A DNA stretch of 64,000 bases from a bacterium. GTDB lineage: Bacteria > Margulisbacteria > Marinamargulisbacteria > GCA-2716485 > JAYNIM01. The translations under genes and the position numbers were made by a program. The stretch spans positions 491,365 to 555,364 of the forward strand of contig JAYNIM010000001.1 in NCBI GenBank assembly GCA_038109055.1, written 5' to 3'. Positions 19,552-46,150 of this stretch are shown here, in pieces; position 1 is the stretch's first letter; every line of letters starts with the position of its first letter. Below the pieces are notes generated by a model. That model had not been told where the DNA came from and searched no databases. It saw only the letters and a program-made list of their open reading frames with translations.

Positions 19552-20364
19552 CTATGTGCTTGTAGTTGTTAAATCAAATTCTTCATCTAATGATTCTAAT
19601 GAAATTGGATCTGCATCTAAAAAATCATTTTCTTCAAATAAATCTTCTTCAATACTATTTTCTATTAATTCCTCATTTGTACCTTTGATACTTTGCATAT
19701 TCTTTGTTTCTGTAAGCTTATTTAATTCTGTTGTGCTTTGAAAACTATCCTTACGTTCTTTATTTTGATAGGATTCTTCTCTGTTATTACTTTCTTCTTT
19801 GCTACCTACCTCTATCTCATCGTTTTCATAAAATTGCATATATAATGCGTTGAATATACTTTCATCTAAAGGCGTGTTTTTTACTTTAGTATTTAGTATT
19901 CTTGATTTTTCATTTTCAGAGTAATGTTTTAGAATATTTTCTTGTTCTTGAAGGTCTAATTTAGTCAAAAAAAAGGCGATTGTTTGTACCTGTTCATTTT
20001 TTAATATCTCGGCAATTTCACTGTAGCTTCTCTGTGACCTGTCTGGATGACTATCTGCTACCTCTAACAGGTCATCATCTTCTTCCGAAGTTTTTTCTTC
20101 TTCCTCTTCTTCCTCTATGTCATTTAAAAAATTGTCTTCCTGTATAAGACTCATATCTTCTGGTTGCTCTAGTGTAATATGATCTACTTCTTCAATAAAT
20201 TCTGCTATTAATTGGTTTAGCTCTTTTTGAGATGGCATTGGAGGTTGTTCTATTTTTAACAACCTAGTTAAAGTATCTTGCCGCATGTGCTTTAAAACAG
20301 CCTCTGCTTGATTACCTAAAACAGATACTATAACCTTTGCTTTTATATGATTTTCTAGTGTCAC
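19552..20364 (-). CDS. fliG: FliG-like protein (N and M domains only, acidic tail)
   Basis: KAKVIVSVLGNQAEAVLKHM (FliG-N); EILKNEQVQTIAFFL (EHPQ-like FliG-M); directly follows fliF. Confidence 0.7.
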   Translation of the reverse strand: MTLENHIKAKVIVSVLGNQAEAVLKHMRQDTLTRLLKIEQPPMPSQKELNQLIAEFIEEVDHITLEQPEDMSLIQEDNFLNDIEEEEEEEKTSEEDDDLLEVADSHPDRSQRSYSEIAEILKNEQVQTIAFFLTKLDLQEQENILKHYSENEKSRILNTKVKNTPLDESIFNALYMQFYENDEIEVGSKEESNNREESYQNKERKDSFQSTTELNKLTETKNMQSIKGTNEELIENSIEEDLFEENDFLDADPISLESLDEEFDLTTTST

Positions 20365-21854
20365 GTAAGTACCTCTTCTTTTAATAATTCTTCTAGAGCA
20401 GCTGCTATATGTTCTGGGTTTGATGTTGCTTTTTTCTTTAAGTCATCTATATTTCTTTCTTTTTGAATCTCTTCTTTTAGTTGTTCAAATTTAGTGACTT
20501 CGTTTTGCTTTTTATTCAAAGAGCTACTGCCCTTTTTTCTTGACTTTAAGAAAAAATAAACCAAAGTTAAGCCCATAGACAACATGCCTATAACACCCCA
20601 ACTTTCAAAATATTCAAAGATAGTTTTACTTTCATCTTTATAAAAAGGGGCTTTATTAAGAAAAATAATATCACGCCCATCTTGATAGCCTATAATTGCG
20701 GCTATGGTAGAAAACACCTCTATTTTTTTTGCATCATCCAGCACAATATCTTCGTTATATTCATCGACTATTATACTCACCGTTGTTCGTTTAATTTCGG
20801 CACTGTTACCGTCTTTTGATGCAGTAATTTCTGCATTTGCAGCTACCTTAAATGAATTTCTAGGAAAAACTCCAGCCAATTGTTTATTAATTTTACTTAA
20901 TATATTATTTTCAAAATTTTCTTTTATTGTGAACCATTGTTTAATATTCTCAAAATTTGGAAGTATTGGCTGCAATTCTTTTATTTCATCTGATTTTTCT
21001 TCTTTCTTTTTATCTAAGAGTCTATCTTTCTCAAAGACTTTTATTTTTTGTTCATTTTTTATTTCATCTAAAATACCATAGGACAACTCAGTTCCTTGTG
21101 TGTCTACAACTGTTATATTTTTAAGACTTAAGCTTTCTACGGCTTTTGCGACGAGCTGCATAATACTATAAACCATGGTTGTGGTTAATGTTTTACCAGG
21201 TGTTTTTCTAACCAAAATACTTGCTGTTACTGGGGGCTGTTTTGATATAAATAGACGCTCTTTAGGCATTACAATTTGAACTTTAGCATCTTCGATCATT
21301 TCCAAACTTGTAATGACTTTTTCGAGTTCTCCAGACAAGGCTCTTAAATAACGTACTTTCTTATCAAATTCTGTGACGCCTAAAGTTTGAGTATTGTCTA
21401 ATAACTCATAGCCTTTAACAGCACCTGAAGGCAAGCCCTTTGTTGCGAGTAATACCTTTGCAGTTTCTAATTTTTTACTATCGACTGATAAACTAAAATT
21501 CTTTCCTTTTTGTGCCAAGGTAAATGAAATATTTGCAAAGCTTAATTCTTTAATGACTTGTGAGACTTGTGTCGCTGGTAATTGTGGGTATAGAACCAGG
21601 TATTTTATTTTCTTATCCCGCTTGGTTTTTTTCTTTGTTTGAGATTGTGCCTCATTTTTCCCCTTATTTCCCTCTAACCCAATGTCATCATTATCTAAAT
21701 TAACATAAAATAATAGGCCTCCTATTATTAAGGCTGTCATAATAATGGCAGCCATCCATATATTTTTTTTATGAAATAACCTAGATGTTTTATCTTGTGT
21801 TAAGTTATTTAAATCTTCTTCTAAATCATCAATTATCAAATTTTCTTCTGCCAT
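20361..21854 (-). CDS. fliF: FliF-like MS-ring protein
   Basis: Two TM helices; GLPSGAVKGYELLD, RALSGELEKVI, AKVQIVMPKERLF, ITVVDTQG. Confidence 0.9.
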   Translation of the reverse strand: MAEENLIIDDLEEDLNNLTQDKTSRLFHKKNIWMAAIIMTALIIGGLLFYVNLDNDDIGLEGNKGKNEAQSQTKKKTKRDKKIKYLVLYPQLPATQVSQVIKELSFANISFTLAQKGKNFSLSVDSKKLETAKVLLATKGLPSGAVKGYELLDNTQTLGVTEFDKKVRYLRALSGELEKVITSLEMIEDAKVQIVMPKERLFISKQPPVTASILVRKTPGKTLTTTMVYSIMQLVAKAVESLSLKNITVVDTQGTELSYGILDEIKNEQKIKVFEKDRLLDKKKEEKSDEIKELQPILPNFENIKQWFTIKENFENNILSKINKQLAGVFPRNSFKVAANAEITASKDGNSAEIKRTTVSIIVDEYNEDIVLDDAKKIEVFSTIAAIIGYQDGRDIIFLNKAPFYKDESKTIFEYFESWGVIGMLSMGLTLVYFFLKSRKKGSSSLNKKQNEVTKFEQLKEEIQKERNIDDLKKKATSNPEHIAAALEELLKEEVLT

Positions 21855-21860
21855 AACTAC

Positions 21861-22439
21861 CTAAATTTGCATTGATATTAATTCTTTGAATGTTTGAGAT
21901 GCAGTTGAAATAACCGTGGTTGCAAAGCTTATTGCTAAGTTTAATTTTGTCGTTTCAATCGATACCTCCTCGATTGATACTTTCCCTTCTACATATTTTT
22001 GCATAAGGTCATTTACTCTAAATTCTAACTGGCTAACACTGTTTAATGATTTAACGGCTTGTTCACTAAAATACTGAAAAGGTGTGATCTCTAGTGCATG
22101 GTCAAAATTTAAATATTCTAATTTTTCCTCTTCTTTCGTTTCTGCATCAAATAGCTCTTTTGTTCTTTTTTTTCTATCTTGAATTGTTAAATTTGGATCA
22201 TTTGCAGTTGCTGCTTGTGCAATTAAGACATGTTGATTTAAGTTAATTGGGTTATTTTGTATTGTTACTTGTGGTAGTGGATTTTTTTCCTGAGTTTTAT
22301 TATCCATTATTCCATCTAACAATAACTTAAACTCATTTTTTATTTCTGGTTTTACGATATTTTGCGCAAAGGATGTTGCTGATGTTGTGGGGTTTACGTT
22401 GTTAAGAGGGTTTATATTAAGGGGACTTATATTACTCAT
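21861..22439 (-). CDS. fliE: FliE-like protein with long N-terminal extension
   Basis: C-terminal GKVSIEEVSIETTKLNLAISF...FKELISMQI; lies between flgC and fliF. Confidence 0.8.
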   Translation of the reverse strand: MSNISPLNINPLNNVNPTTSATSFAQNIVKPEIKNEFKLLLDGIMDNKTQEKNPLPQVTIQNNPINLNQHVLIAQAATANDPNLTIQDRKKRTKELFDAETKEEEKLEYLNFDHALEITPFQYFSEQAVKSLNSVSQLEFRVNDLMQKYVEGKVSIEEVSIETTKLNLAISFATTVISTASQTFKELISMQI

Positions 22440-22440
22440 A

Positions 22441-22896
22441 TTATTTCATTAACTCTATTGCACTTTGATACATTGATTTGCTAACTTTTAATGCGGTTAT
22501 GTTTGCCTCATATACGGCCTCTGTAAATGTTAATGTCATCATCTCATTAGGCAGATTAACATTTGGATAATAAAAATAACCATTTTCATCCGCTTGAGGT
22601 GCGGCTGGATCAAAATAACGCCCGAAAGGTTCTGTACTTCTTTTTATTCCAGTTACTTTTACCCCGTCTTTAAATTTTTCTAGTTGAATATATTTCTTTT
22701 GATAAGGTAATCCTGTTTCTTCGTCTTTTAAAGTATTTAAGTTTGCAACATTTTCTGCGATAATCATCATTTTTGTTCTCTGTGCTAAAATCCCCGATAT
22801 ATTTATAGAAAATGAATCATCTAAATTTGAAACTGCATAGACTGAGTATGATACGTATACTGTTATTATACATATAATTGCCGTTATTCTATTCAT
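22441..22896 (-). CDS. flgC: Rod protein FlgC homolog with Sec-type signal peptide
   Basis: SGILAQRTKMMIIAENVAN, PYQKK, DPAAPQADENGYFYYPNVN, YEANITAL. Confidence 0.92.
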   Translation of the reverse strand: MNRITAIICIITVYVSYSVYAVSNLDDSFSINISGILAQRTKMMIIAENVANLNTLKDEETGLPYQKKYIQLEKFKDGVKVTGIKRSTEPFGRYFDPAAPQADENGYFYYPNVNLPNEMMTLTFTEAVYEANITALKVSKSMYQSAIELMK

Positions 22897-23309
22897 TATT
22901 GTTTACCTAGTGTCACTACTTTTCTTAAATTCTCTACGCGTTTTTTATAAAGTGTATATAACGCTTGTTGCCGTTTGTTGTTTTCTGCAATTTTTCCCAT
23001 AAAATGTTCTATCATTACTTTCGAAAAGTATGCTTTATCTTCTGTTTCAACATTAAACAAGCGCTCTAATTCGGCTCTATCTTCTGGTAATAAAATTGGC
23101 CTAAATTTTGGTGTTGTGGCATTTGCTATGTTGTATGAATATATCGCATGTTTTTGGTTACTATATTTTATAGCACGCTCTAATACCATCCCTGTTGAAT
23201 CTTCAAGTATATGTCCTTTTGTTTTACTTTTTGCTATATCTAGTTTTTGTGCTAGTAAGGACGTAGTTAAACTTATAAATATAGCTATTACCAGTATTCT
23301 CGCTATCAT
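22896..23309 (-). CDS. flgB: Rod protein FlgB homolog with Sec-type signal peptide
   Basis: LERAIKYSNQKHAIYSYNIANATTPKF plus FlgB-type C-terminal helix; directly upstream of flgC. Confidence 0.82.
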   Translation of the reverse strand: MIARILVIAIFISLTTSLLAQKLDIAKSKTKGHILEDSTGMVLERAIKYSNQKHAIYSYNIANATTPKFRPILLPEDRAELERLFNVETEDKAYFSKVMIEHFMGKIAENNKRQQALYTLYKKRVENLRKVVTLGKQ

Positions 23310-23318
23310 ATTTTTTGT

Positions 23319-24044
23319 TTATATATAAATATCTTTTTCTTCTAATTCTAAATATCTCTTAATTAATTTTAACGCTTCCATATGGACTCTGCAAACTTTG
23401 CTTTTGGACACCTTTAATTTCTCTGCAACTTCGTTTTGTTTCATGTTACTTTGATAAATTAATTGTATAACTTCTTTCTTAGCTGATTCTAATTTATTCA
23501 CAATATTCCATATATTTGTTGTACTTTCAATATACGCTTCTTCTATATCTCTTCCACACGTATTGGCGGTAGAAAATTTCTCTAAATCGTTGGTATTTAG
23601 TAGATAGGATACGGATGACTGTGTCACGATCTCATTTAATGTTTTTTCAAAACTTTGTCTATTTGCTTTATTTTTATCGTCGAGTATATTCTCCGTAATC
23701 TCCATCATTTTTTCTTGTATATTTTCTCTATATCTTGCGTATTCAGCAGGATTCTTTTGTTTCCATTCCAACCTCAAATTATCCATTATCTGACCTTGAA
23801 TACGATAATATGCGTAGGTTTTAAAATTAGATTCTTTTTTTTCTTTGTATTGCACTTTCGCTTTAATCAAGCCTTCAATACCCCAACTGATTAAATCCTC
23901 TTTTTCAACACCTGAAGGTATTTTAGACTTCATAAATATTTTACTCGCAACTCCTTTAACTAGAATTAAATGGTCATCGATAAATGCTTGTGATACTTGC
24001 TGTTGTAATATCTCTTCTTTGCTATTCATATTTATGTTAGTCAA
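23319..24044 (-). CDS. fliA: FliA/WhiG-family sigma factor
   Basis: EDLISWGIEGLI, FKTYAYYRIQGQIMDNLR, region-4 QNEVAEKLKVSKSKVCRVH. Confidence 0.8.
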   Translation of the reverse strand: MTNINMNSKEEILQQQVSQAFIDDHLILVKGVASKIFMKSKIPSGVEKEDLISWGIEGLIKAKVQYKEKKESNFKTYAYYRIQGQIMDNLRLEWKQKNPAEYARYRENIQEKMMEITENILDDKNKANRQSFEKTLNEIVTQSSVSYLLNTNDLEKFSTANTCGRDIEEAYIESTTNIWNIVNKLESAKKEVIQLIYQSNMKQNEVAEKLKVSKSKVCRVHMEALKLIKRYLELEEKDIYI

Positions 24045-24672
24045 TTAATTTTTGTTTTGTTTTGTGTATATATATGATATCTCTTTCTTCATTATAATCT
24101 ATAGTATCAGATACGATTAAAAAAACAGATTCTTCTATTTTTTCATCTAAACTATTCTCTTGTGCTAATATACTTATACTCTTTTTTTGAATAGTGCTAT
24201 TATTTTTATTTAACTCTACTCTTGAGACTATTCTAAAGGATTTTTCTGGGAATGCTTCTCTCAACTTTCTTTTTACTCTATTGGATAAATTGTTTTCTAT
24301 ATGTTCTTTCCGTGAGAGTGATGCATCTTTGGGCAAAAATTTTTCCTCAAACTTTAATAAATCCATTTTTGCAAGTTTATCTGCCATTTCTTTAGCTAGC
24401 AGATCATTGATCATGTCACTTTGTGTCACATCTATATAATCGATATCTTCATCTATAAATATTTCCATTTTTTTAAAAGCAGGTTCCGTTAAAATCTTCT
24501 TGATAAAAAAAGACTGCATAAACTGGACTGCTTCTTTTCTTGTTCTGGGTTTTTTATTATTATACAAACTTGAAGAATAATGATTAGCCGCTAATGGTAT
24601 TCCTTCGTAACTCATTGATGGAATAGCATAACTAATAGCAATAATACCTATAATTATTATAATTTTGTTCAA
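24037..24672 (-). CDS. FlgJ rod-binding-like domain fused to a FliF-RBM3-like domain, with signal peptide
   Basis: KEAVQFMQSFFIKKIL...SDMINDLLAKEMADKLA directly downstream of flgI; C-terminus aligns by eye with this operon's FliF C-domain. Confidence 0.6.
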   Translation of the reverse strand: MNKIIIIIGIIAISYAIPSMSYEGIPLAANHYSSSLYNNKKPRTRKEAVQFMQSFFIKKILTEPAFKKMEIFIDEDIDYIDVTQSDMINDLLAKEMADKLAKMDLLKFEEKFLPKDASLSRKEHIENNLSNRVKRKLREAFPEKSFRIVSRVELNKNNSTIQKKSISILAQENSLDEKIEESVFLIVSDTIDYNEERDIIYIHKTKQKLID

Positions 24673-25727
24673 ATGATTTCAATGTTTGCTATCAGTGCGC
24701 CTGCTTCTTTTAGTGCTTGTATAATTGAAATTAAATCTCTTGGAGAAGCACCAATTTCATTTAAAGTATCTACTAAGCTTGATAGTGTTTCGTTTGATTT
24801 TAAATATACTAACTTTTTCTTCTCTTCATCAATTTCTAACTGATTTTGCTGATCTGATATTGCACCTGCTTGTGGTTCTGTAATTCGAATAGATACAGCC
24901 CCATGTGTCAAGGCTACAGGGCTTAAACGCACCATTTCTCCAATTACAATGGTACCTGTTCTTTCATTAATGACAATTTTTGCTGATTGGTCAGGCTTTA
25001 CTGAAATATTTTCTAATTTTGCAATGGTACTAATTAAATTTGCTGAATTCAAATCTGTTAATGGTATTTTAATTTGTCTAGCATCTAATGCTTTTGCACC
25101 TAAAAAGCCCTCATCATGGATGGCATTAACTGCACGATCTATAGTTATAAAATTTGAATCATTTAAAACAATGGAGATATTGTGCACATCTGTAAAGGTG
25201 ACGGGAACTTCTTTTTCTACAATGGCCCCATCTGTGATAATTCCAACTGTTGGTTTGTTTTTAGCATACATAATGGTACTTGAACGCTGTGCTGCACCTC
25301 CCACTACAACCGAACCTTGGCCAACAGCATAAACTCTCATATCAGCACCTTTCAAGGGGGTCATCAATAAGGTACCTCCATCTAAACTAGATGCATCTCC
25401 GAGTGCTGATACCGTTAGTGAAATCCGTTGTCCTGACTTTACAAATGCGGGTAGGGTTGCTGTCACCATCACGGCTGCCGTGTTTCGTATATTACCAACA
25501 CTACCTACTTGTACACCCATTTTAACTAATAAATTTCTCAGTGCAGTTGGTGTAAAAAAGGTATTTCGACTGTCACCAGTACTTTTCAATCCAACCACTA
25601 AGCCAAATCCAATTAATTGGTTATCTCTCATTTCTACAATTTTTGAAATATCTTTTAACCTTACTTCTACAGCAAAGCTTGCTGTAGTAAAGCTAAATAA
25701 TACTAGTAGTAACAATGCTCGTTTCAT
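24669..25727 (-). CDS. flgI: Flagellar P-ring protein
   Basis: VRLKDI, NQLIGFGLVVGL, AAVMVTATLP, GDASSLDGGTLLMTPLKG, INERTGTIVIG; ATG at 25727 preferred. Confidence 0.96.
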   Translation of the reverse strand: MKRALLLLVLFSFTTASFAVEVRLKDISKIVEMRDNQLIGFGLVVGLKSTGDSRNTFFTPTALRNLLVKMGVQVGSVGNIRNTAAVMVTATLPAFVKSGQRISLTVSALGDASSLDGGTLLMTPLKGADMRVYAVGQGSVVVGGAAQRSSTIMYAKNKPTVGIITDGAIVEKEVPVTFTDVHNISIVLNDSNFITIDRAVNAIHDEGFLGAKALDARQIKIPLTDLNSANLISTIAKLENISVKPDQSAKIVINERTGTIVIGEMVRLSPVALTHGAVSIRITEPQAGAISDQQNQLEIDEEKKKLVYLKSNETLSSLVDTLNEIGASPRDLISIIQALKEAGALIANIEII

Positions 25728-25729
25728 TT

Positions 25730-26338
25730 TTAAAATACCCAATTAAATATCCTACTTATTATTCCTGGATTCTGCTTGGCTGCAACTGGTCCCCCTCTAC
25801 CGCTTACTGAAACCTCAGCTTTTGCAATTTGATACGAAAAAATAGTATTCTTTGGAGTCACATCTGCAGGCCGCACAATCCCAGATACTCGAATAGTTTC
25901 GATGTCATGATTCACTTTAACCTTGTGTTCTCCCACTACAAATAAATTCCCGCTCTTTAACACTTCTGTCACAATTGCCGTTATAATTGCCTTTACGTTG
26001 CTTTTTCTCGTCGTTTGTCCATTGCCTTGATATCTATCACCCCCGCCTATAGAGATATCTCGTTTTTTCCTCACTCGTTCATTGCCTAATAAATTAGCCA
26101 CTTGATCCCAATTGTCTGCAAGTGATGAGGTTAGTGAGGTTGTTTTTCCTGAAGAGGTGCTCGCCTGTTGTACAGCGGAGGTGGATTCGGATACGTAGAT
26201 AGTAACGATATCCCCCACTGAAATTCTTCGTCGCGATGGTTGGTATATGCCTTCACTATAGGTTCTCCATAATGAATCTGCCCCAATAGATGTTGTTACT
26301 AAGATTAATAAACTAATCAATATAAATATTTTTTTCAT
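25730..26338 (-). CDS. flgH: Flagellar L-ring protein, no lipobox Cys
   Basis: ADSLW, VGDIVTIYVSE, VTEVLKSGNL, SGIVRPADV, SYQIA. Confidence 0.92.
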   Translation of the reverse strand: MKKIFILISLLILVTTSIGADSLWRTYSEGIYQPSRRRISVGDIVTIYVSESTSAVQQASTSSGKTTSLTSSLADNWDQVANLLGNERVRKKRDISIGGGDRYQGNGQTTRKSNVKAIITAIVTEVLKSGNLFVVGEHKVKVNHDIETIRVSGIVRPADVTPKNTIFSYQIAKAEVSVSGRGGPVAAKQNPGIISRIFNWVF

Positions 26339-27050
26339 CTATCACTTTTCCTTTTAATCGTTTTAGTGTTGATAATTTTGATGTTACCGGTATGTACCCA
26401 CCTATTTGACCATCCGCTAATGCTTGTCCATCAACTTTTATTTGCCCCCATTTTTTATTTATTAAAATTGATATAGGATCACCTTTTTGTATTGCTGGTT
26501 TTTCTTCTATGGCTAAATAATGTACCTGTGTATTTTTAGGAATACTACGTTTTGCTATTTTTCCTATCATTTCTTCCTTAGTAAATATATAATTCTGCAG
26601 GGTTGATAATTTTGAATAAATTAATTTTTCTTTCATGATTAAATCAGACTCTGTAATCATTTTACCTCGTTGAATCAAGTGCTTTGTGACAGGCATTTTT
26701 GTGGTTGCTTCTATTTTTAATAAAAGGGTCTGTCTTTCTAGAAGAGTCCCCTGCCGGTCATAGAAAAAAATCGGCTGTATTTGAGTCCCCAGTAAATCGT
26801 TGATTTTAGGGTCTGGACATTTAAAATAACTGGCTTTTTCAGGTATATCTAATTTTGTTAAATCAATTTTGAATGTCATTTTAAAGGTCATTAATTCTGC
26901 ATTTATATTTCCCAGAACATGCTCTAATTTTTGTCGATAGACAGTTCTGACTTCTTTTTTGATATCTGCTAGACTCACCGCAGCATGAATCGTATTTATC
27001 GCTAGACTCACAATCAAACTAATAATAAAAAAAAGCCTACTTAATGTCAC
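26313..27050 (-). CDS. flgA: P-ring assembly chaperone
   Basis: Signal peptide; SAF-like IQRGKMITESDL; C-terminal IQKGDPI...GQALADGQIGGYIPV. Confidence 0.85.
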   Translation of the reverse strand: MTLSRLFFIISLIVSLAINTIHAAVSLADIKKEVRTVYRQKLEHVLGNINAELMTFKMTFKIDLTKLDIPEKASYFKCPDPKINDLLGTQIQPIFFYDRQGTLLERQTLLLKIEATTKMPVTKHLIQRGKMITESDLIMKEKLIYSKLSTLQNYIFTKEEMIGKIAKRSIPKNTQVHYLAIEEKPAIQKGDPISILINKKWGQIKVDGQALADGQIGGYIPVTSKLSTLKRLKGKVIDEKNIYID

Positions 27051-27834
27051 TTCCAGCCTTTAGCATATCATCGGATGCTTTCATTGCTTTAATAACCGTT
27101 TCAAAGGAACGTTGACACATCAGCATTTCCATCATTTCAGAGATAATATCTACATTTGAAAATTCCAATGATCGTTGCCTGATAGACCCCATGCCCTGTT
27201 CACCCGGTATAATTAATTGTGGATCCCCAGAGCTTTCTGTTTCTTGCATTAAATTTTGGCCAATATCTTTTAAACCTTCTGGATTCATAAACTTTGCTAA
27301 GACCATCTGTCCAATTTCTTGTTGTTGAGTATCTCCATCTAATAAGGCAAAAATTCGGCCTTCTTGATTCACAATAATTTCTCTTGCTTCTAAAGGGATA
27401 GTTAATGGTGGATCTAAGGGATGTCCGCTAGAATTTAATACTCTTCCTTGACTGTCTACATGAAAATTTCCTGCTCGACTATAAGCGGCGCTTCCATCTG
27501 GCAATTGAAACTGAAACATACCATTCCCTTCGATTGCCATATCCATTTGCCTGTTTGTTACTTCGATTGTTCCAGTACTAAAGTTCTTTGTAATACCCAC
27601 GAACCGAACACCTTGACCAAACTCGATATATTTTTTTCTACGTTTGCTGCTACCTGTTTCTTCATCAGACTCCGTCACAGCTCTTTCAAAAATTAATGGA
27701 AACAAACTTTCCATCTCTAAGCGTCTTTCCTTATATCCTGGTGTTTGTGCATTTGAGATATTATTTGTAATAACCTGCATTTTTCGTTGAAACGAATATA
27801 ATGCTGATTTTGCCATATGTAATTGAGATAACAT
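27037..27834 (-). CDS. flgG: Distal rod protein FlgG
   Basis: VITNNISNAQTPGYK, DMAIEGNGMFQ, YSRAGNF, LEFSNVD; canonical N-terminus without signal peptide. Confidence 0.93.
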   Translation of the reverse strand: MLSQLHMAKSALYSFQRKMQVITNNISNAQTPGYKERRLEMESLFPLIFERAVTESDEETGSSKRRKKYIEFGQGVRFVGITKNFSTGTIEVTNRQMDMAIEGNGMFQFQLPDGSAAYSRAGNFHVDSQGRVLNSSGHPLDPPLTIPLEAREIIVNQEGRIFALLDGDTQQQEIGQMVLAKFMNPEGLKDIGQNLMQETESSGDPQLIIPGEQGMGSIRQRSLEFSNVDIISEMMEMLMCQRSFETVIKAMKASDDMLKAGSDIK

Positions 27835-27852
27835 AATTAAACTCCTTTTATT

Positions 27853-28659
27853 TTAATTTGGTGCGGCAATTTGTGTCGCTGTATTGGCTGATCGTGCCAA
27901 TACTTTAAGAACCTTTGCATTTGATTGATACCCATTTGTTGCATAGGTTATATCTCCTACTAAGGCTTTTACTACATTATTTTCTTCTATATGACCTTGT
28001 ACAACTTTATAGTACTCAACCCCACTCAAAATTTCAGCCTCTTCTACTAGTACAAATACGGATCCATTCAGTGAATTGAGCTTTTGCATTTCTTTATAGG
28101 AGGCAAATACCGCTACTTTTATACGATCTACTTCTTCACCATCTACGTATATCATTCCAGATCGTGACACAACAACATCGCCTTTAGGCAAGTATATTGG
28201 CCCTTTATCACCTAATACGGGATAATTTCCGGCAACAGTGACTAAACGGTCACTCCCATCTCTCGTGAAGCGCCCATCTCGGGTATAACCCAGAGTTGTT
28301 TTTAATTGTATAACAAAAAAACCTTTACTCATCGCATCTATGTAAAAATCTAATGGTCTATGTGTTTCAACGACCGGACCTGCTCGCCAACGATAAAAAG
28401 GAATGGCATCTATTCGTTTCTCTCCATTCTTATCAATCATTCTTGAATTAAACGCGCCTGTTTCGATAAAGCCTGGTGTGTTTACATTCATGGTGTAAAA
28501 CAACCAATTACTCCACTGAATTTGAAAAGCCCTCATTGCTTGCATACTTCCATTAGCGGCAATATCTTGAATCTCACCATAATCCTCATAAGAAGAAAGG
28601 TTACTCGTTATGATAAGTAGACATACTATCAAGGTCTTTATTTTATTAATACCGTTCAT
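27853..28659 (-). CDS. flgF: Rod protein FlgF homolog with Sec-type signal peptide
   Basis: NVNTPGF, THRPLDF, GFFVI, YTRDGRF, VVQGHIEENNV; directly upstream of flgG. Confidence 0.85.
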   Translation of the reverse strand: MNGINKIKTLIVCLLIITSNLSSYEDYGEIQDIAANGSMQAMRAFQIQWSNWLFYTMNVNTPGFIETGAFNSRMIDKNGEKRIDAIPFYRWRAGPVVETHRPLDFYIDAMSKGFFVIQLKTTLGYTRDGRFTRDGSDRLVTVAGNYPVLGDKGPIYLPKGDVVVSRSGMIYVDGEEVDRIKVAVFASYKEMQKLNSLNGSVFVLVEEAEILSGVEYYKVVQGHIEENNVVKALVGDITYATNGYQSNAKVLKVLARSANTATQIAAPN

Positions 28660-28674
28660 TTATCTCTATTCTCA

Positions 28675-29046
28675 TTATTTTCTTTTTAGTTTCTTATTAA
28701 TCTTATTTCGTTTATCCGATAATTTTTCAAGTTGATACGCAAAGGCTAACACCTCTGCTATTATAGCATATAATTTTGATGGTATATGTTGATTCAATTC
28801 TAATTTAGACAACAAATTACTTAATACGGGATCTTCATACAGAGGTATTTTGTGATCTTCTGCAATATGTAAAATCATTTCAGCAATTGAGGCTTTACCA
28901 GATGCAACGATTTTTGGGGCCTTGTCTTTTTCAATATCATATTTTATTGCGACTGCTTTTAACTTTTCTTTTTTGGGTAGATTTAACTGATCAATACGTT
29001 TCTTAAAGTTGATCTTATGTTTCTTCTGATTCTCGTTTGCCATCAT
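28675..29046 (-). CDS. Stand-alone FlhB/EscU cytoplasmic-domain protein (FlhX/YlqH type)
   Basis: KAVAIKYD, APKIVASG, IPLYEDPVL, IPSKLYAIIAEVLAF. Confidence 0.9.
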   Translation of the reverse strand: MMANENQKKHKINFKKRIDQLNLPKKEKLKAVAIKYDIEKDKAPKIVASGKASIAEMILHIAEDHKIPLYEDPVLSNLLSKLELNQHIPSKLYAIIAEVLAFAYQLEKLSDKRNKINKKLKRK

Positions 29047-39468: not shown

Positions 39469-40283
39469 TGTTGGTTGTTTATGGTCTTTCCTAACATGGA
39501 GTTCGTCCTTTATACTTGAGAATCATGCGATATGTACCTGATTTTTGTTATGTTATTTTCCTGAGTTTTTGTATGAGTGTGCTGCCCTTGCTTGCATTGG
39601 TCAATACCGAGGCTTTACGTTCTTCTGATAGTGTTAAGGGGCTTCGGCATGATCTGTCTTATGAATTAGGCTGGCTGTCTGGGGATTCGGTCAAGCATAG
39701 TTTTAGTGGAGATTATCGCCTTGATTATCGACATGCAGGTAGCGAATATTTGATGATTTTGTCTAGGGACTATGCCAAATCAAATGGGCTTGTGTCGCAA
39801 GATAAGGGCTTTGTCCACCTAAGACGGATTAAGGATCTTTCGTCTACGCTTGCCTATGAAGGCTATATTCAAGATCAATTTGATCGTTTTATTAATCTGA
39901 AAGAACGCCTTTTATACGGCTTGGGGTTGCGTTTTTATTTGGGTAAAAGCACCTTTAAGACCTTTTATTTGGGCTGTAGCCTCATGAACGAACATGAGCG
40001 CTACAGTAACCAAGCTGATCACGAGCATCTACGCCTGAGTAACTATGTCTCTTTTTCGTATCTACTAGGCAGTACCTTTAACTACCGCCATACCACCTAC
40101 TATCAGGTGAGTACCACAGATTTTCAGAACTATCGGCTACTGTCCTTACAGGACCTTAACCTTGCATTCAGCCCTGTGATTTCGCTGTTTTTAAAACTTG
40201 AACTTCGCTATGATAATCAGCCTTTTGCTCGTATTGAACGTTTTAACTCTGTATTAAAGCAGGGGTTGCGTCTACGCTTTTAA
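38698..40283 (+). repeat. 1,586-bp direct repeat, copy 1 (NADAR domain + DUF481 gene)
   Basis: Near-identical to 43552-45137 (offset 4854). Confidence 0.97.
39516..40283 (+). CDS. DUF481-family outer-membrane beta-barrel, copy 1
   Basis: Signal peptide, LVNTEALR mature start, amphipathic strands, C-terminal GLRLRF. Confidence 0.7.
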   Translation: MRIMRYVPDFCYVIFLSFCMSVLPLLALVNTEALRSSDSVKGLRHDLSYELGWLSGDSVKHSFSGDYRLDYRHAGSEYLMILSRDYAKSNGLVSQDKGFVHLRRIKDLSSTLAYEGYIQDQFDRFINLKERLLYGLGLRFYLGKSTFKTFYLGCSLMNEHERYSNQADHEHLRLSNYVSFSYLLGSTFNYRHTTYYQVSTTDFQNYRLLSLQDLNLAFSPVISLFLKLELRYDNQPFARIERFNSVLKQGLRLRF

Positions 40284-40383
40284 TTTATTTGTTTAGTTTT
40301 TTCTGATAGTGGGTATTTTCTATATAGGAAATACATATGGCTTATTATACCTTTGACTTTGAATTATTTTATCCCTGCTTTGT

Positions 40384-43300
40384 ATGGGTTCAAGGAATGT
40401 TGTTATGGATAGTATAGAAAGGTCAATAGAAACTACACCTCCATCCCCACTCTCACCTTTAGCAAAAGGTGAGGATTTACCCTCTCAAGCAACTTCTTCT
40501 GCTTTATCTCCTTCTATTAAGACAGATCCTACTGATATGGGCGAGATTTTTCATGAAAATGGAAGCGTCTATGAAGGTCCTTTAAGCAATGATCTTCCGC
40601 ATGGAGAAGGTAAACTGATATATCCTGGTGTTTCTACATTAGAAGGTGTTTTTTCTAATGGGCATTTGGTTAATAGTTATGGGAAGATATCTTATCAAGA
40701 AAAGGGAGATTACCCTGGTGCTTCATATCTAGGTAAGGTCAATAATCGCTGTCAACCGCAAGGACCAGGCACAATGATTTTTAAGGAGGGTCTGGTTTTA
40801 AGGGGGAATTTTGATAAAGTTCATCAATGTGTTGTTAAGTATAATGGTGCTTCGGGTGCCTATACGGGTAGTATAGATAAACGTGGTTACCCATATAATG
40901 GATCAGGGATGTTTATGGACAACGCAGGAAACGTATTTGAAGGGGTCTTTATTGATGGTAAATATCACAAAGAAGATACGTTGAGTCGACAGGAGCCTCA
41001 TAGTCCCCCGGCTACCACTCGTCTTGCTGGGGTTACTTATGATTCTTTATCAGACATCTCTTCAACAGTAGCTCTTGTTCAAAATATCCATCACCAGGTT
41101 CAAACATTGATTGATTTCCCTGATGGGGCAGGTTATAAAGATTCTGCGGGTGTTTTGCAGGCGCTTTTACATGACAGTAATCCGTTTTTGAATGTTCTAT
41201 TTTCTGATCATGAGACTGTTAATCACTCTTTTCCTATTGGGACATTGCGTTCCTATCTTCTTCACCCTGCCCCTCCTAAAAGGGCATTAGCCATCCAAAA
41301 CCTTTCTCGTTTGTGTATCAACCAGTTTGCGCACTATGAAAGAAGTGATCCATCATCTCCTGAAAGTGCCATTAGACGCTATGCCCTGATGAAAATTTCG
41401 GGGCTACTGTTTCAGATGGCGATGTGTTGTTCGACGGAGGACTCTATTCCTGATGATTTTAAAAAGGCGCTACTTTTAGATGTACAATCGTTATTTTTTA
41501 ATCATGTTGCGACCTTTGCTGATTCAGGACTAGCTTCAGGGTCACCTATACCAGACCTCATTGAACGTCATACGGGTATTCCTGATATTGGGTTAGAACT
41601 ACAGGCCGTTAGGATGTATATGTCTGACATGTCTGCTAGTTCTGCTTCTTCTGAATTGGCCCCTTCATCAGAGCACTATAATGTATTACCTAAAGAATAT
41701 GGCCAATATTTTTGTGTAGAAACCTTCCCTGTCGAACATCCCTCTGATGATCTTAGCGATATTTCCTTGCTTTCACCTTATTCTGCAAGTGATCTTAACT
41801 TTCATCTATTTCCAAGTGATCGCAGCGTACCCACTGTTAGAATTAGAGGTGCTTATACTCATCGACTTGCTCTTTATCCTCGTCGATATTCTGCTCTCCC
41901 TGCTGTTCGTCTTGATACGGCGAGTTCTGTTGAGGATGATACTGCTGATCTTTCTGCAGCTTTACCTGCACAGGCTCCTTCGAGTCAGTCTGTTATGGGT
42001 CCGTCTCTTCCTAACCAAACTTTTGGCCCTCACGTCCCTCACGTTTCATCTGAGACTAGGATTTCCTTAGGTTCTGACCCTCGAAATGATCCGACTATAC
42101 GTGCAAACGCTGTCTATGCGATCTATGATACAACTGCCCCTCCTGTTGATGCTGCCAGTAGTCCTCCTGACACAGCTGATTTGTTTAGACCCTTAGCTGC
42201 CGCGACTGAAAAAAGATCTACATTCGAAGAGACCTTACATCGTTTTATTGCTTCACTACCTCCGAAGTTTCAAAAACAGGCTGCTGATTGGTATTCTCGT
42301 AAATCAAGGTTTGATTCTACAACACCTCATTCTGATCCACTTAGGCTTCTTGAAAATATCTTAACTGACATGTTTAATTCTTCGAATATTATAAGCGATC
42401 ATGGTGCAGGTAAGTTTCATCGTGTATTTTTTGATACTAAGGAACATACATGGAAAATGACTATTATTCTGCCTGATGGTGATCATGCAACATCGTTACT
42501 CAGTGAGTGTGACCAAGATCTGTCTCAGTCTCATTCCGAACAAGCTATCTTTGATGCCATGGTAGCAGGACTGGGCCAAGATGGAGATGACCCCTTTGCA
42601 GATGACCCCTTTGCAAACGTTAGCCCCGATGATTTAATTAAACTTCTTAAGTCATCTTTTCATTGTAGTTATAGTGGGTCTCTTTCTGATGTAGACGATC
42701 CAATCTATCAAGAATTTAAAAAATTTGAACCAGCTTACTTAACAAATCCTGATCCTAGAGTTACGAATCAGAATCTTACTCATTTTAGACGACAAATTTG
42801 TATACTGTTAGAACGTAAAGATCCCGATCGTTACACTGGCCTCACATCGTTGTTTAATGATCTAGGAAAGTATGGTGGTTATACCTTCGATGAACATCAG
42901 TTTCATAACGGAAAATGGAAGGACTCTACCTATGCAGAGGCCTGTGGGGACTTTTTAACTGCCCTTTCACATCGGGAGGGTTCTAATACCGACCTCAGTA
43001 GACTATCTCCAGAGTATATTCCGGCTTATCACCAATTAATGCAACGGTTTACGCCGGGTGATAGAAAATGGATTTTACTTCAACCTACTACTATCACTAA
43101 TCTTATAGAGGCCTTAAACTCAGGATATGATATCGACTTTTTAGAAGGTCATCTTAGACAGTTATTGTGTGATCCTGCAACCTCTGCAGCTGCAGGGAGT
43201 TCTGGTACTACGATAGCTCCTGCAGATTCTCAGCCTGCAATACCTGCCATAAAACCTAGTTCAACTCTGATGGCTTGTTTGCCTTCCCGTGTTACTCCAC

Positions 43301-44322
43301 AAAATAGTTCAGGAAAAAAGGAAATAGTTCTTAACTTTGATTCAGTGGACACACTTAATCAATGTGCTGCACTTTTATATCCATTGGGTGTTCAAAACCG
43401 ACATCTTGGTGTCAAACAGGCGATTCCTGGTACTACCAAACTTGTCCTTACTGACTATAACATTGTTGCTTTACAACCACATCTTGCTCAATTACGCGCG
43501 CAAGGTGCTCAAATTATTGCTGATGCAGTTCAAACATGGATTGATGATACGGCTGCTGCTTCTGCTGTGGCTGCTGGATCTCCAGTCCCATTGCCTGCTG
43601 TTCGAGGTATTGCTGCGTCTGGGTATTTACATCACCTTCAACAACAACATTTCAGACAGGATCCTCACATAGGGCTAGATATGCAACATGTTGCCCATGA
43701 TACTATTGCTTTTAATGAAGAAAACCATGCGACGGGTGTATTATCGAATACAGCACGTGCCCCTTTTAAGGCAAAGGTACCCTATCATGGACCCGAACAA
43801 GAAAAAGAGTTTCCATCAGCTGAACATTATTTTCATTATATGAAATTGGCTTATATTGAACAGAATTCTACCCATGGGCTATTACATGGTAACGACCCAC
43901 AAACTAAGGAATACTGGCTTAAACGCATGTTACCTCTACAAGGTTCACAGTTGCAAGATCAGTGTGATGACTGGGGATTCAATGACGCTTTTAAATCACC
44001 TGGCGTTCCCGAATGGCATGACGAGGGTAAAAAAAAAGTGATGTGGGATGCCTTATGCCTCAAATATCAGGCCCCTCATAACCAAGAGTTTAGAAAGATG
44101 ATCAATGAAATAGCTAGGTGCGATGTCAAGGTATGGGAATGGCGAAATCATGATCAAAAATGGGGGAGAACCGCAACGAATGGAGGGAGTAATTTAGCTG
44201 GATGTTTATTGACTGGTTTAGCGTGGAGTCTTAAATTACAGACTAATCGTAGCGATTATGATTCAAATCGCACATACGTGCTTCCTGATTACGATCCTAC
44301 ATTAGTACCTTCTGGTATTTAG
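40384..44322 (+). CDS. Effector-like mosaic protein: MORN repeats + unknown domains + NADAR
   Basis: YEGPLSNDLPHGEGKLIY-type MORN units; C-terminal ~255 aa near-identical to the 36346 ORF. Confidence 0.8.
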   Translation: MGSRNVVMDSIERSIETTPPSPLSPLAKGEDLPSQATSSALSPSIKTDPTDMGEIFHENGSVYEGPLSNDLPHGEGKLIYPGVSTLEGVFSNGHLVNSYGKISYQEKGDYPGASYLGKVNNRCQPQGPGTMIFKEGLVLRGNFDKVHQCVVKYNGASGAYTGSIDKRGYPYNGSGMFMDNAGNVFEGVFIDGKYHKEDTLSRQEPHSPPATTRLAGVTYDSLSDISSTVALVQNIHHQVQTLIDFPDGAGYKDSAGVLQALLHDSNPFLNVLFSDHETVNHSFPIGTLRSYLLHPAPPKRALAIQNLSRLCINQFAHYERSDPSSPESAIRRYALMKISGLLFQMAMCCSTEDSIPDDFKKALLLDVQSLFFNHVATFADSGLASGSPIPDLIERHTGIPDIGLELQAVRMYMSDMSASSASSELAPSSEHYNVLPKEYGQYFCVETFPVEHPSDDLSDISLLSPYSASDLNFHLFPSDRSVPTVRIRGAYTHRLALYPRRYSALPAVRLDTASSVEDDTADLSAALPAQAPSSQSVMGPSLPNQTFGPHVPHVSSETRISLGSDPRNDPTIRANAVYAIYDTTAPPVDAASSPPDTADLFRPLAAATEKRSTFEETLHRFIASLPPKFQKQAADWYSRKSRFDSTTPHSDPLRLLENILTDMFNSSNIISDHGAGKFHRVFFDTKEHTWKMTIILPDGDHATSLLSECDQDLSQSHSEQAIFDAMVAGLGQDGDDPFADDPFANVSPDDLIKLLKSSFHCSYSGSLSDVDDPIYQEFKKFEPAYLTNPDPRVTNQNLTHFRRQICILLERKDPDRYTGLTSLFNDLGKYGGYTFDEHQFHNGKWKDSTYAEACGDFLTALSHREGSNTDLSRLSPEYIPAYHQLMQRFTPGDRKWILLQPTTITNLIEALNSGYDIDFLEGHLRQLLCDPATSAAAGSSGTTIAPADSQPAIPAIKPSSTLMACLPSRVTPQNSSGKKEIVLNFDSVDTLNQCAALLYPLGVQNRHLGVKQAIPGTTKLVLTDYNIVALQPHLAQLRAQGAQIIADAVQTWIDDTAAASAVAAGSPVPLPAVRGIAASGYLHHLQQQHFRQDPHIGLDMQHVAHDTIAFNEENHATGVLSNTARAPFKAKVPYHGPEQEKEFPSAEHYFHYMKLAYIEQNSTHGLLHGNDPQTKEYWLKRMLPLQGSQLQDQCDDWGFNDAFKSPGVPEWHDEGKKKVMWDALCLKYQAPHNQEFRKMINEIARCDVKVWEWRNHDQKWGRTATNGGSNLAGCLLTGLAWSLKLQTNRSDYDSNRTYVLPDYDPTLVPSGI
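42586..42615 (+). repeat. 15-bp tandem duplication encoding DDPFA twice
   Basis: GATGACCCCTTTGCA x2. Confidence 0.9.
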
Positions 44323-45137
44323 TGTTGGTTGTTTATGGTCTTTCCTAACATGGAGTTCGTCCTTTATACTTGAGAATCATGCGATATGTACCTGATTTTT
44401 GTTATGTTATTTTCCTGAGTTTTTGTATGAGTGTGCTGCCCTTGCTTGCATTGGTCAATACCGAGGCTTTACGTTCTTCTGATAGTGTTAAGGGGCTTCG
44501 GCATGATCTGTCTTATGAATTAGGCTGGCTGTCTGGGGATTCGGTCAAGCATAGTTTTAGTGGAGATTATCGCCTTGATTATCGACATGCAGGTAGCGAA
44601 TATTTGATGATTTTGTCTAGGGACTATGCCAAATCAAATGGGCTTGTGTCGCAAGATAAGGGCTTTGTCCACCTAAGACGGATTAAGGATCTTTCGTCTA
44701 CGCTTGCCTATGAAGGCTATATTCAAGATCAATTTGATCGTTTTATTAATCTGAAAGAACGCCTTTTATACGGCTTGGGGTTGCGTTTTTATTTGGGTAA
44801 AAGCACCTTTAAGACCTTTTATTTGGGCTGTAGCCTCATGAACGAACATGAGCGCTACAGTAACCAAGCTGATCACGAGCATCTACGCCTGAGTAACTAT
44901 GTCTCTTTTTCGTATCTACTAGGCAGTACCTTTAACTACCGCCATACCACCTACTATCAGGTGAGTACCACAGATTTTCAGAACTATCGGCTACTGTCCT
45001 TACAGGACCTTAACCTTGCATTCAGCCCTGTGATTTCGCTGTTTTTAAAACTTGAACTTCGCTATGATAATCAGCCTTTTGCTCGTATTGAACGTTTTAA
45101 CTCTGTGTTAAAGCAGGGGTTGCGTCTACGCTTTTAA
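43552..45137 (+). repeat. 1,586-bp direct repeat, copy 2
   Basis: Near-identical to 38698-40283. Confidence 0.97.
44370..45137 (+). CDS. DUF481-family outer-membrane beta-barrel, copy 2
   Basis: Protein identical to 39516-40283; stop overlaps the menC stop (TTAA). Confidence 0.7.
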   Translation: MRIMRYVPDFCYVIFLSFCMSVLPLLALVNTEALRSSDSVKGLRHDLSYELGWLSGDSVKHSFSGDYRLDYRHAGSEYLMILSRDYAKSNGLVSQDKGFVHLRRIKDLSSTLAYEGYIQDQFDRFINLKERLLYGLGLRFYLGKSTFKTFYLGCSLMNEHERYSNQADHEHLRLSNYVSFSYLLGSTFNYRHTTYYQVSTTDFQNYRLLSLQDLNLAFSPVISLFLKLELRYDNQPFARIERFNSVLKQGLRLRF

Positions 45138-46150
45138 CACATGTGTTTCAAAAGATCCTCACTGACCTTTGTTTTCCAATAATGAGATGCCGGACAAAGT
45201 TCGGATATGGGATCGAGTCGGGGGTGCATGGCCAGTGCCTGAGTATAAGAGCGTCCAATTTCACTTTCCAATAGACCTCCAATATGGCAAGGGATGCGAT
45301 GTTTATCACAATAATTGACACATTGTATGGCGGGCCAAAACCCCCCAAGCTTTGCAGGTTTAAGACTGACCCTTCTGCCGGACATCTCTCTTTTCATTCG
45401 TTGTATATCGTCCAAACATGTGATGCTTTCATCCAAACATAGGGGGATATTTAGGGTCTTTTGTAGCTGGCTAAGACCTGCCCAATCGTTTCGATTTAGA
45501 GGCTGTTCGATATAGCGATACCGCCCCTTTAAGGTCGTTAATTCTGATAATGCTTGATCGAGCGTAAATGATTCGTTGGCATCTAAGACAAACCTTATAT
45601 CTGGGTATCTATCTACAACTGTCTCTACCCATTTTAGGTAGTTTCCTGGTTTTATTTTTACTTTGAGATGACGATAGCCCTGTTTCTGTAGCTGTTGACA
45701 GCTGTGGCTGAGTGCTTCTAGTGACTCTTTTATGCCCATAGCTGGCAGCTTTTGAATCTGGCGTGTTTGGTTTATGCCTAATTGCTGCCATAATTCTTGT
45801 TGTTGTTTTTTTGCTTCCAGCTTCCATGCCCCCATCTCGATACAGGCTTTGCTGAGTGGCTGGCCTGATACTAACTCGTTCATCTTGTAAGATAGGTCTT
45901 GTATATCTGTGTAATCATACCCTTGAATGCAGGGGATAAGGCGTGATTCGAGTGTCTGTCTTGCATCTTGAATACTCTCTGGAAAATAACTACGGTCTGG
46001 CAAGGCCGCACATTCACTAAATACTGTGTCTGCTCCAGAACATATACGCAAAAATAAGCGTGATATTTTACTATAGTTAGAGTGAGAGGTAATGAATGGA
46101 TAGTGGGGCTCAAGATTAACACTGATAATCTCAATTGAGTCTATCTTCAT
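45134..46150 (-). CDS. menC: o-Succinylbenzoate synthase / NSAR-like enolase-superfamily enzyme
   Basis: HLKVKIKPG, LDANES, YIEQP, LCLDESI, SLKPAKLGG, GGLLESEIGR. Confidence 0.8.
   Translation of the reverse strand: MKIDSIEIISVNLEPHYPFITSHSNYSKISRLFLRICSGADTVFSECAALPDRSYFPESIQDARQTLESRLIPCIQGYDYTDIQDLSYKMNELVSGQPLSKACIEMGAWKLEAKKQQQELWQQLGINQTRQIQKLPAMGIKESLEALSHSCQQLQKQGYRHLKVKIKPGNYLKWVETVVDRYPDIRFVLDANESFTLDQALSELTTLKGRYRYIEQPLNRNDWAGLSQLQKTLNIPLCLDESITCLDDIQRMKREMSGRRVSLKPAKLGGFWPAIQCVNYCDKHRIPCHIGGLLESEIGRSYTQALAMHPRLDPISELCPASHYWKTKVSEDLLKHMC

Follow-up and report, generated by a model that had tools for sequence, protein, structure and literature searches.

Whether the base of a flagellar axis can be supplied by a route other than the machine's own export channel is the question raised by a flagellar-type gene cluster in the genome (93% complete) of an uncultured marine bacterium of the Marinamargulisbacteria, of which a 64-kb stretch, referred to here as the window and used for all coordinates, was analysed. 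The axial parts of a flagellum (i.e. rod, hook and filament) are held to pass through their own type III channel and to be added at the distal tip, and only the ring proteins and FlgA are held to use the general secretory (Sec) pathway. The cluster comprises fourteen genes on the minus strand, from 30260 to 19552, in the order FliK-like, FlhB-C-like, flgF-like, flgG, flgA, flgH, flgI, a gene for a protein of 211 amino acids (aa), fliA-type, flgB, flgC, fliE, fliF and short fliG. It is likely that FlgB, FlgC and FlgF, and probably the FlgJ-like 211-aa protein, are synthesised as precursors, each with a cleavable signal peptide of Sec type, and join the rod from the periplasm. Judged by their sequences, FlgB, FlgC and FlgF probably reach the periplasm via the general Sec pathway and not via the flagellar export channel.

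Sec-type leaders on FlgB, FlgC and FlgF

The argument turns on the following five genes:

22441..22896, minus strand: flgC, 151 aa; leader codons 1-21 (22834-22896); rod domain from residue ~23-28; PF06429 and PF00460
22896..23309, minus strand: flgB, 137 aa; leader codons 1-20 (23250-23309); gene order fliA-flgB-flgC-fliE-fliF
27853..28659, minus strand: flgF-like, 268 aa; leader codons 1-23 (28591-28659); D1 domain PF22692
27037..27834, minus strand: flgG, 265 aa; no leader; AAGGAG upstream
24037..24672, minus strand: 211-aa protein, tentatively a relative of the N-terminal (rod-binding) part of FlgJ; leader; between flgI and fliA

FlgB, FlgC and FlgF each open with a basic tip, to which a hydrophobic core and then a small-x-small site are joined, the conserved rod domain following immediately. 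The same three-part leader is present on the 211-aa protein, and none is found on FlgG, FliE or the FliK-like protein. FlgC begins with MNRITAIICIITVYVSYSVYA/VSNLDD (the slash marks the predicted cut), FlgB with MIARILVIAIFISLTTSLLA/QK and FlgF with MNGINKIKTLIVCLLIITSNLSS/YE, the last of these having QIQWSNWLFYTMNVNTPGF at the position of the usual rod-protein NNxAN motif. The flgC ATG shares one base with the flgB TAA stop (TAATG), and the next in-frame ATG, GTG or TTG of flgC is located at codons 43-44, within the conserved helix; the sole other in-frame start of flgB is ATG codon 41, a position that is not Met in aligned orthologs. FlgG begins directly with the conserved helix (MLSQLHMAKSA), behind an AAGGAG ribosome site. 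According to family models and solved chains, position 1 of the rod domain corresponds to residue ~23-35 of FlgC, FlgB and FlgF, and to residue ~4 of FlgG. The leaders of all three proteins are thus plain N-terminal additions in front of complete rod domains. When FlgC was aligned to the E. coli protein and to canonical FlgC from its own phylum, the leader appeared as a clean insertion between Met1 and residue 2.

The identities of the proteins were examined with family models, solved structures and structure prediction. FlgC scored 102.6 bits against the NCBIfam equivalog TIGR01395 (cut-off 102.1), with the alignment starting at residue 28, and its residues 29-147 align to residues 7-130 of the Salmonella FlgC chain 7bin_V (E=2e-12); FlgG scored 260.2 bits against TIGR02488 (cut-off 252.75), aligned from residue 5. 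FlgB reached 24.8 bits against TIGR01396, under the cut-off of 59 (residues 39-108 on model positions 4-74), and as a single sequence matched no PDB chain. The first match of a profile of 25 FlgB orthologs was Salmonella FlgB 7bin_Q (E=1.7e-6, profile position 41 to chain position 14), and the gene order supports this identity. For FlgF, the best model was TIGR02490 with 82.8 bits, under its cut-off of 178.5, and the protein matches the PDB FlgF chains 7bin_b and 8z5s_m (residues 33-172 on chain residues 7-148). An AlphaFold2 model of FlgF (13-row alignment; mean predicted local distance difference test score of 76) consists of a helix at residues 3-22 and a low-confidence linker at residues 22-31, beyond which come the N-helix, beta domain and C-helix typical of rod proteins. 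Foldseek ranked rod chains from 7bin, 8z5u and 8wk3 highest for this model (E of ~1e-14, template modelling scores of 0.55-0.62), and these include both FlgF and FlgG chains. The product is FlgF/G-like, and its designation as FlgF rather than FlgG rests on gene position and best model match. The 211-aa protein has no Pfam or NCBIfam match, and was aligned to E. coli FlgJ by hhalign with a probability of 5.9% (E=0.0064); its place is taken in sister classes by ~105-aa proteins, one of which weakly matches the FlgJ model TIGR02541 (E=0.0023), and it is tentatively regarded as FlgJ-like.

Leaders were scored by a rule requiring an uncharged 10-residue window with a mean Kyte-Doolittle hydropathy of >=2.2 in the first 31 residues, a non-negative net charge of the n-region, A, S or G at position -1 and a permitted residue at position -3. 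Applied to E. coli K-12, the rule was positive for FlgA, FlgH and FlgI (3/3) and negative for the type III-exported proteins FlgB, FlgC, FlgD, FlgE, FlgF, FlgG, FlgJ, FlgK and FlgL (9/9). In the window, FlgB, FlgC, FlgF, the 211-aa protein, FlgA, FlgH and FlgI were positive and the other seven proteins negative. The hydropathy maximum (Hmax) was 2.96 for FlgC, 3.36 for FlgB and 3.74 for the 211-aa protein, with FlgB, FlgC and FlgF (2.96-3.36) being comparable to FlgA, FlgH and FlgI (2.98-3.52), and was low in the leaderless FlgG (0.31) and FliE (0.58). An initial annotation of this DNA had described a FlgC leader without a Met before the conserved core and with an ATG overlapping the flgB stop, a FlgB leader ending before QK, a FlgF leader before YE combined with an altered rod motif, and a leaderless FlgG, all of which are borne out by the sequence; its limitation of the leaders to FlgB, FlgC and FlgF is correct for the presence of these three and misses the fourth, on the 211-aa protein.

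The rule was positive for 250 of 1506 crude open reading frames of the same genome (16.6%), and since it fires at this rate, three independent hits by chance have an expectation of ~0.005; conservation in relatives is a stronger argument than this figure. Twin-arginine (Tat)-like motifs were observed in one of 36 FlgB and one of 44 FlgC sequences, both read as upstream of the start Met, and lipobox-like motifs in three of 36 FlgB sequences, two of them read as upstream of the start; neither motif was present in 20 FlgF sequences or in the 211-aa protein. Signal peptidase I and SecY are encoded by the genome (PF10502, 163.7 bits, and PF00344, 345.3 bits, respectively).

FlgC was matched in 38 of 41 relatives, and a sample of 141 genomes from across the phylum contained 128 with a match. 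Conservation of the leaders, which the initial annotation had left to be checked in orthologs, was counted over 23 named loci with kept gene order, any upstream start being allowed, and by the rule the leaders are kept across the class. FlgB passed in 19/22, FlgC in 20/23 and FlgF in 13/16 cases, so that leaders are predicted on these rod proteins about as frequently as on the known Sec substrates FlgA (14/16), FlgH (17/18) and FlgI (16/19); the 211-aa protein passed in 6/7. No passes were recorded for FlgG (0/16), FliE (0/21), the FliK-like protein (0/12), the FlhB-C-like protein (0/12), FliA (0/14) or short FliG (0/9). FliF passed in 0/19 cases from the longest start and in 4/19 from any start, the four hits being attributed to its membrane segment. 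Among the misses, the frames of L026 FlgB and L031 FlgF contain runs of N, FlgC of L035, L036 and L046 and FlgF of L035 and L046 showed borderline hydropathy (1.92-2.19), and FlgB of L028 and L037 has a hydrophobic N-terminus and failed another clause.

In all 36 leader-bearing FlgC proteins, those of sister classes included, a site compliant at -3 and -1 lies after the hydrophobic core and ahead of the first charged residue. The combined length of the hydrophobic and cleavage regions of these leaders has a median of 17 residues (range 8-23, n=36), and the leaders are otherwise unconserved in sequence. The usual boundary in Marinamargulisbacteria FlgC is a small residue, Q and then L-D-D-A. 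In all 16 full-length FlgG orthologs, a stop located 0-15 codons before the start Met closes the frame.

A second flagellar-type system

The remaining genes of the cluster are as follows:

29043..30260, minus strand: FliK-like; PF02120; no leader; Hmax -0.23
28675..29046, minus strand: small stand-alone protein resembling the FlhB C-terminal domain (FlhB-C-like); PF01312 on positions 262-334; TIGR00789
26313..27050, minus strand: flgA; PF13144; Sec leader
25730..26338, minus strand: flgH (L ring); PF02107; Sec leader
24669..25742, minus strand: flgI (P ring); PF02119, E=4e-107; Sec leader, as expected
23319..24044, minus strand: fliA-like sigma factor; Sigma70 regions 2 and 4
21861..22439, minus strand: fliE, 192 aa; PF02049 on residues 124-192; no leader
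20361..21854, minus strand: fliF (MS ring); PF01514, E=4e-48
19552..20364, minus strand: short fliG; N and M domains only (PF14842 and PF14841), no PF01706

The N-terminal extension of FliE is long, non-hydrophobic and of low complexity; the open frames of this gene encode 175-252 aa in Marinamargulisbacteria relatives, compared with ~101-111 aa in sister classes. The FlhB-C-like gene, located between the FliK-like gene and flgF, is kept in 12 of 23 related loci. The G+C fraction is 0.31-0.35 in the flagellar cluster, compared with 0.41-0.46 over most of 32001-46000, a stretch that includes a dip to 0.38 at 36001-38000. An Rfam scan of the whole window matched no family.

Elsewhere in the same genome, FlhA, FlhB, FliP, FliQ, FliR, FliN and a FliM-like protein are encoded on contig C2, and FliH, FliI and FliJ on contig C3. 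Both export machineries, Sec and type III, are present. No Flagellin_N match was obtained in this genome, and flagellin exceeded the cut-off in one of 55 genomes of the class, on a 1986-base contig of a 78%-complete metagenome-assembled genome (MAG) of 500 contigs. A short FlgE-like protein without a leader (287 aa; TIGR03506, 81 against a cut-off of 70) is encoded on contig C8 (72214-79533, locus L057), where its gene is preceded by those for unknown proteins of 596, 273, 876, 172 and 136 aa. In two further genomes (G001 and G019), the FlgE-like gene (288 and 294 aa) follows genes for two proteins of ~270-280 and 590 aa. The proteins of these loci are candidates for the external part of a flagellin-less machine.

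Many genomes of other classes of the phylum contain two FlgC genes. Twenty sister-class loci were fetched, of which seven are canonical, with a leaderless FlgC adjoining FliF and FlgB recognised in two, and thirteen are syntenic with the window, following the order (FlgF)-FlgG-FlgA-FlgH-FlgI-small FlgJ-like-FliA-FlgB-FlgC-FliE-FliF-short FliG; the longer syntenic loci continue with genes read as FliH, FliI and FliJ. The five two-copy genomes that were checked each encode two FlhA, two FlgI and two FlgC proteins and one to four flagellins. The cluster is thus a distinct second flagellar-type system, which in sister classes coexists with a canonical, flagellin-bearing flagellum. A modified ordinary flagellum, as the rerouted proximal rod of the initial annotation might suggest, does not describe the cluster, which belongs to a separate system in a class where flagellin is missing from 54 of 55 genomes. 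As sister-class genomes hold both sets, the cluster in the window represents the sole member of such a pair to remain in Marinamargulisbacteria. An apparently leaderless second FlgC in the class genome G038 is uninformative, as its frame is cut by a contig end.

In a FlgC tree inferred without the leader columns, canonical FlgC proteins and that of E. coli form one starred clade (99/97), and all 36 leader-bearing proteins are placed on the other side, with Marinamargulisbacteria as a clade of their own (100/100). FlgC of the second system carries a leader in all 36 cases, 13 of 13 sister-class clusters among them. The other proteins vary between classes: in sister-class clusters, FlgF has a hydrophobic N-terminus in all three cases where it was detected, FlgB has a leader in four of twelve (being leaderless in L060, L064, L066, L068, L070, L072, L076 and L079) and the small FlgJ-like protein in one of eight, compared with leaders on all four proteins in Marinamargulisbacteria. 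This uneven spread agrees with the proposal of the initial annotation that the leaders were gained separately.

Five loci carrying the cluster (L026, L031, L032, L035 and L046) derive from MAGs labelled Rickettsiales or Actinomycetota; FlgC of L026, L032, L035 and L046 is placed inside the Marinamargulisbacteria clade on the tree, and these labels therefore look wrong.

To place the leaders beyond the phylum, 1.84 billion proteins were searched and the best 150 FlgC cluster representatives taken, 23 of which pass the rule. One rule-positive protein (P0112) is located among alphaproteobacterial FlgC, with Pelagibius, Roseomonas and Dongia among its named leaderless relatives, and the rule is also passed by 23 of its 120 best homologues. 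A quick tree built from 55 FlgC cores requires at least three changes of leader state, at least two of which are forced by starred branches; a starred clade (99) unites 16 leader-bearing with nine leaderless alphaproteobacterial FlgC proteins. This tree indicates that the FlgC leader was gained in at least two separate clades. The proteins P0112 and P0152-P0179 are uncultured FlgC of alphaproteobacterial type with Sec-like leaders, their named relatives being without. A metagenome scan aimed at this group returned 80 loci; the six that were inspected contain no leader-bearing FlgC, and the FlgC recognised there is leaderless.

Taken across the phylum, these observations allow a broader proposal, which we regard as quite possible but advance tentatively: a phylum-wide second machine with P and L rings, a type III gate and no flagellin may have shifted the delivery of its axial parts stepwise to Sec, with FlgC affected in every lineage and then FlgF, FlgB and the FlgJ-like protein in some. 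As FlgC leaders also occur in at least one unrelated clade of alphaproteobacterial type, periplasmic rod building may, by the same tentative proposal, be a recurrent and viable alternative to type III delivery; if so, axial flagellar assembly would not intrinsically require passage through the central channel.

A non-rotary machine, as might be supposed from the short FliG, was rejected as stated, because three loci elsewhere in the genome (C1:39099-41499, C2:122379-126563 and C2:149192-152051) each combine a FliG_C protein with an adjoining MotA/MotB-like pair. Across the class, FliG_C is found in 45 and MotB_plug in 42 of 55 genomes. These loci could represent a split rotor protein or several stator-rotor modules. 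Sister-class clusters additionally contain a ~117-aa gene between flgA, where recognised, and flgH (L060:2698-3051, L064:10020-10376, L066:3045-3401, L070:10128-10478, L074:7569-7925, L078:2670-3020 and L079:1637-1987), which is not present in the cluster of the window. Its product begins like what we take to be aspartate 1-decarboxylase (PanD).

Export route and competing explanations

Flagellar type III signals are N-terminal, disordered and without a fixed sequence, according to excerpts of PMC9307174, which also state that secretion of Salmonella FlgB requires its F45, that this residue shows a genetic interaction with a hydrophobic pocket of the FlhB C-terminal domain, and that the F45-x-x-x-L motif is needed for docking to FlhB. 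This motif, sought as an aromatic residue, three residues of any kind and a hydrophobic residue after the NIAN box, is kept in canonical FlgB (3/3) and in second-system FlgB of sister classes (12/12; eight leaderless and four with a leader), and was found in none of 21 Marinamargulisbacteria FlgB proteins. FlgG retains an F-x-x-x-hydrophobic motif in 28 of 28 cases. This distribution fits a release of FlgB from FlhB docking in Marinamargulisbacteria.

The initial annotation had concluded that the proximal rod is rerouted via Sec. The form of the leaders, i.e. that of Sec substrates cleaved by signal peptidase I, agrees with every sequence test applied, and it predicts that the proteins are targeted to Sec, cleaved and added to the rod from the periplasmic side. 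The precursors of FlgB, FlgC, FlgF and the FlgJ-like protein would be carried across the inner membrane by SecYEG, and signal peptidase I would cut after the small-x-small site, giving rod proteins of canonical length; the new N-terminus of FlgC would correspond to residue 2 of canonical FlgC. The subunits would then join the proximal rod from the periplasmic side, atop FliE and the FliPQR gate, and the leaderless FliE, FlgG, FliK-like ruler and short FlgE-like protein would still use the type III apparatus. In the FlgF model, the predicted cut coincides exactly with the low-confidence linker, which connects the leader helix to a normal rod fold. Until ring formation, a proximal rod under construction is exposed to the periplasm in which it lies. 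According to an excerpt of PMC13344023, a lack of rod-hook proteins lets type III secretion discharge into the periplasm. Periplasmic access to the rod is plausible on these two grounds.

Several points weigh against assembly from the periplasm. The rod would need to be a hybrid, with FliE and FlgG supplied by type III export and FlgB, FlgC and FlgF by Sec, and order and stoichiometry would have to be kept across the two routes; moreover, we know of no precedent for an axial flagellar structure built from periplasmic subunits. The four leader-bearing FlgB proteins of sister classes retain F-x-x-x-L, showing that a leader does not always go with loss of the motif, and the loss in Marinamargulisbacteria effectively amounts to a single event on a single stem, the relatives being non-independent. 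The rule, being crude, responds to N-terminal membrane anchors as well and does not separate these from signal peptides. Finally, a possible start is present within 14 codons upstream of the conserved SG anchor in 18 of 23 FlgC frames (one frame was skipped because of N), so that codons alone cannot rule out a downstream start there. As five of the 23 frames, including that of the window, have no ATG, GTG or TTG in this interval, the case against downstream starts rests mainly on leader conservation.

That conservation makes it highly improbable that the leaders are untranslated, with true starts downstream and the upstream frames being annotation artefacts. Besides the 18 FlgC frames, the in-frame ATG at codon 41 of flgB and the lack of a strong Shine-Dalgarno sequence before this gene would be in its favour. 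However, in FlgC of the window neither ATG nor GTG nor TTG occurs between codons 1 and 43, and across class- and phylum-level divergence the frames remain open, with K or R after the initial ATG and with the hydrophobic stretch and the -3/-1 site retained, in contrast to the stop-closed FlgG frames; downstream starts would also cut into the conserved N-terminal helix. Continued type III export, with the hydrophobic N-terminus acting as an unusual type III signal or a regulatory pro-segment that a chaperone keeps from Sec and the signal recognition particle, also appears improbable, though less so. A complete export gate and ATPase complex are encoded, the four sister-class FlgB proteins mentioned above combine a leader with the docking motif, and type III signals have no fixed sequence (excerpts of PMC9307174). 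Against this, the known flagellar signals described in those excerpts are disordered and not hydrophobic, with E. coli substrates having Hmax values of -0.51 to 1.56 compared with 2.96-3.36 here, and by the rule the leaders are indistinguishable from those of FlgA, FlgH and FlgI of the same operon; moreover, the docking motif is lost from all 21 Marinamargulisbacteria FlgB proteins and no dedicated chaperone gene was recognised in the cluster.

The hydrophobic N-termini could alternatively act as uncleaved signal anchors, tethering FlgB, FlgC and FlgF to the inner membrane, where they would form or nucleate a membrane-attached periplasmic structure instead of a free rotating rod. The inability of the rule to separate anchors from signal peptides would accommodate anchors, as would uncharged stretches that in some proteins reach 20-23 residues and the atypical nature of a system with a short FliG and no flagellin in 54 of 55 class genomes. 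We nevertheless consider this reading unlikely. In all 36 FlgC leaders, which are otherwise unconserved, the core boundary has a small residue in position -1 and one of the permitted residues in position -3, and in FlgB and FlgF of the window the uncharged run ahead of the predicted site, at ~15-16 residues, would be short for a membrane helix. Furthermore, the N-terminal helix, which in solved rods packs into the rod core, is complete in the mature part, a tether passing through the MS ring seems sterically unlikely, and the genes for the P and L rings, the bushing of a turning rod, are retained.

Comparison with known flagella

The rod proteins appear to belong to the same families and to share the folds of those of the canonical FliE-FlgB-FlgC-FlgF-FlgG rod of Salmonella and E. 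coli (7BIN, 7CGO and 8WK3), and fliE, fliF, flgG, flgA, flgH and flgI form the neighbourhood here as they do for the canonical flagellum. The difference lies in the N-termini: canonical FlgB, FlgC and FlgF lack leaders, as the E. coli controls also show, have disordered N-termini and belong to the early type III substrates docking on FlhB, as far as excerpts of PMC9307174 describe them, whereas in Marinamargulisbacteria these proteins have Sec-type leaders and FlgB is without the docking motif. FlgA, FlgH and FlgI share the same kind of N-terminus and an equal leader frequency among orthologs with the rod proteins described here, but serve as rings or chaperones, assemble around the rod and include no axial, helically polymerising subunit.

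Split FlgJ systems offer a precedent for the arrival via Sec of a protein that acts at the growing rod, although the Sec-exported partner is a peptidoglycan enzyme and not a rod subunit or rod-binding cap domain. SltF of Rhodobacter sphaeroides is reportedly such a Sec-exported, rod-associated enzyme in a split FlgJ system. BB0259 of Borrelia is described as a rod-associated enzyme of a split FlgJ system in an excerpt of PMC8517470. Dual flagellar systems, e.g. Fla1 and Fla2 of R. sphaeroides (excerpt of PMC7277832), comprise two full sets per genome, as in the sister classes here. However, known dual systems build flagellin filaments in both, in contrast to the second system of this phylum with its near-absence of flagellin in the class (none in 54/55), short FliG and rod leaders. 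PMC13344023 was set aside as a precedent, since only Sec-less beta-lactamase reporters are used in its excerpted text. A literature search returned no description of signal peptides on rod proteins or of a Marinamargulisbacteria flagellar system, and the sole paper containing both 'Marinamargulisbacteria' and 'flagell' in a full-text search was a nomenclature list.

If FlgB, FlgC and FlgF do arrive via Sec, the base of an axial structure can be built from the periplasm. This would bear on the nucleation of the rod on FliE and FliPQR, on the role of the rod cap and on the evolution of flagellum and injectisome from simpler parts. Leader-bearing and leaderless paralogues occur as natural pairs within one genome and, together with the shortness of the leaders, provide simple material for a test. 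The cluster also draws attention to a flagellar-type machine lacking flagellin in an abundant marine lineage.

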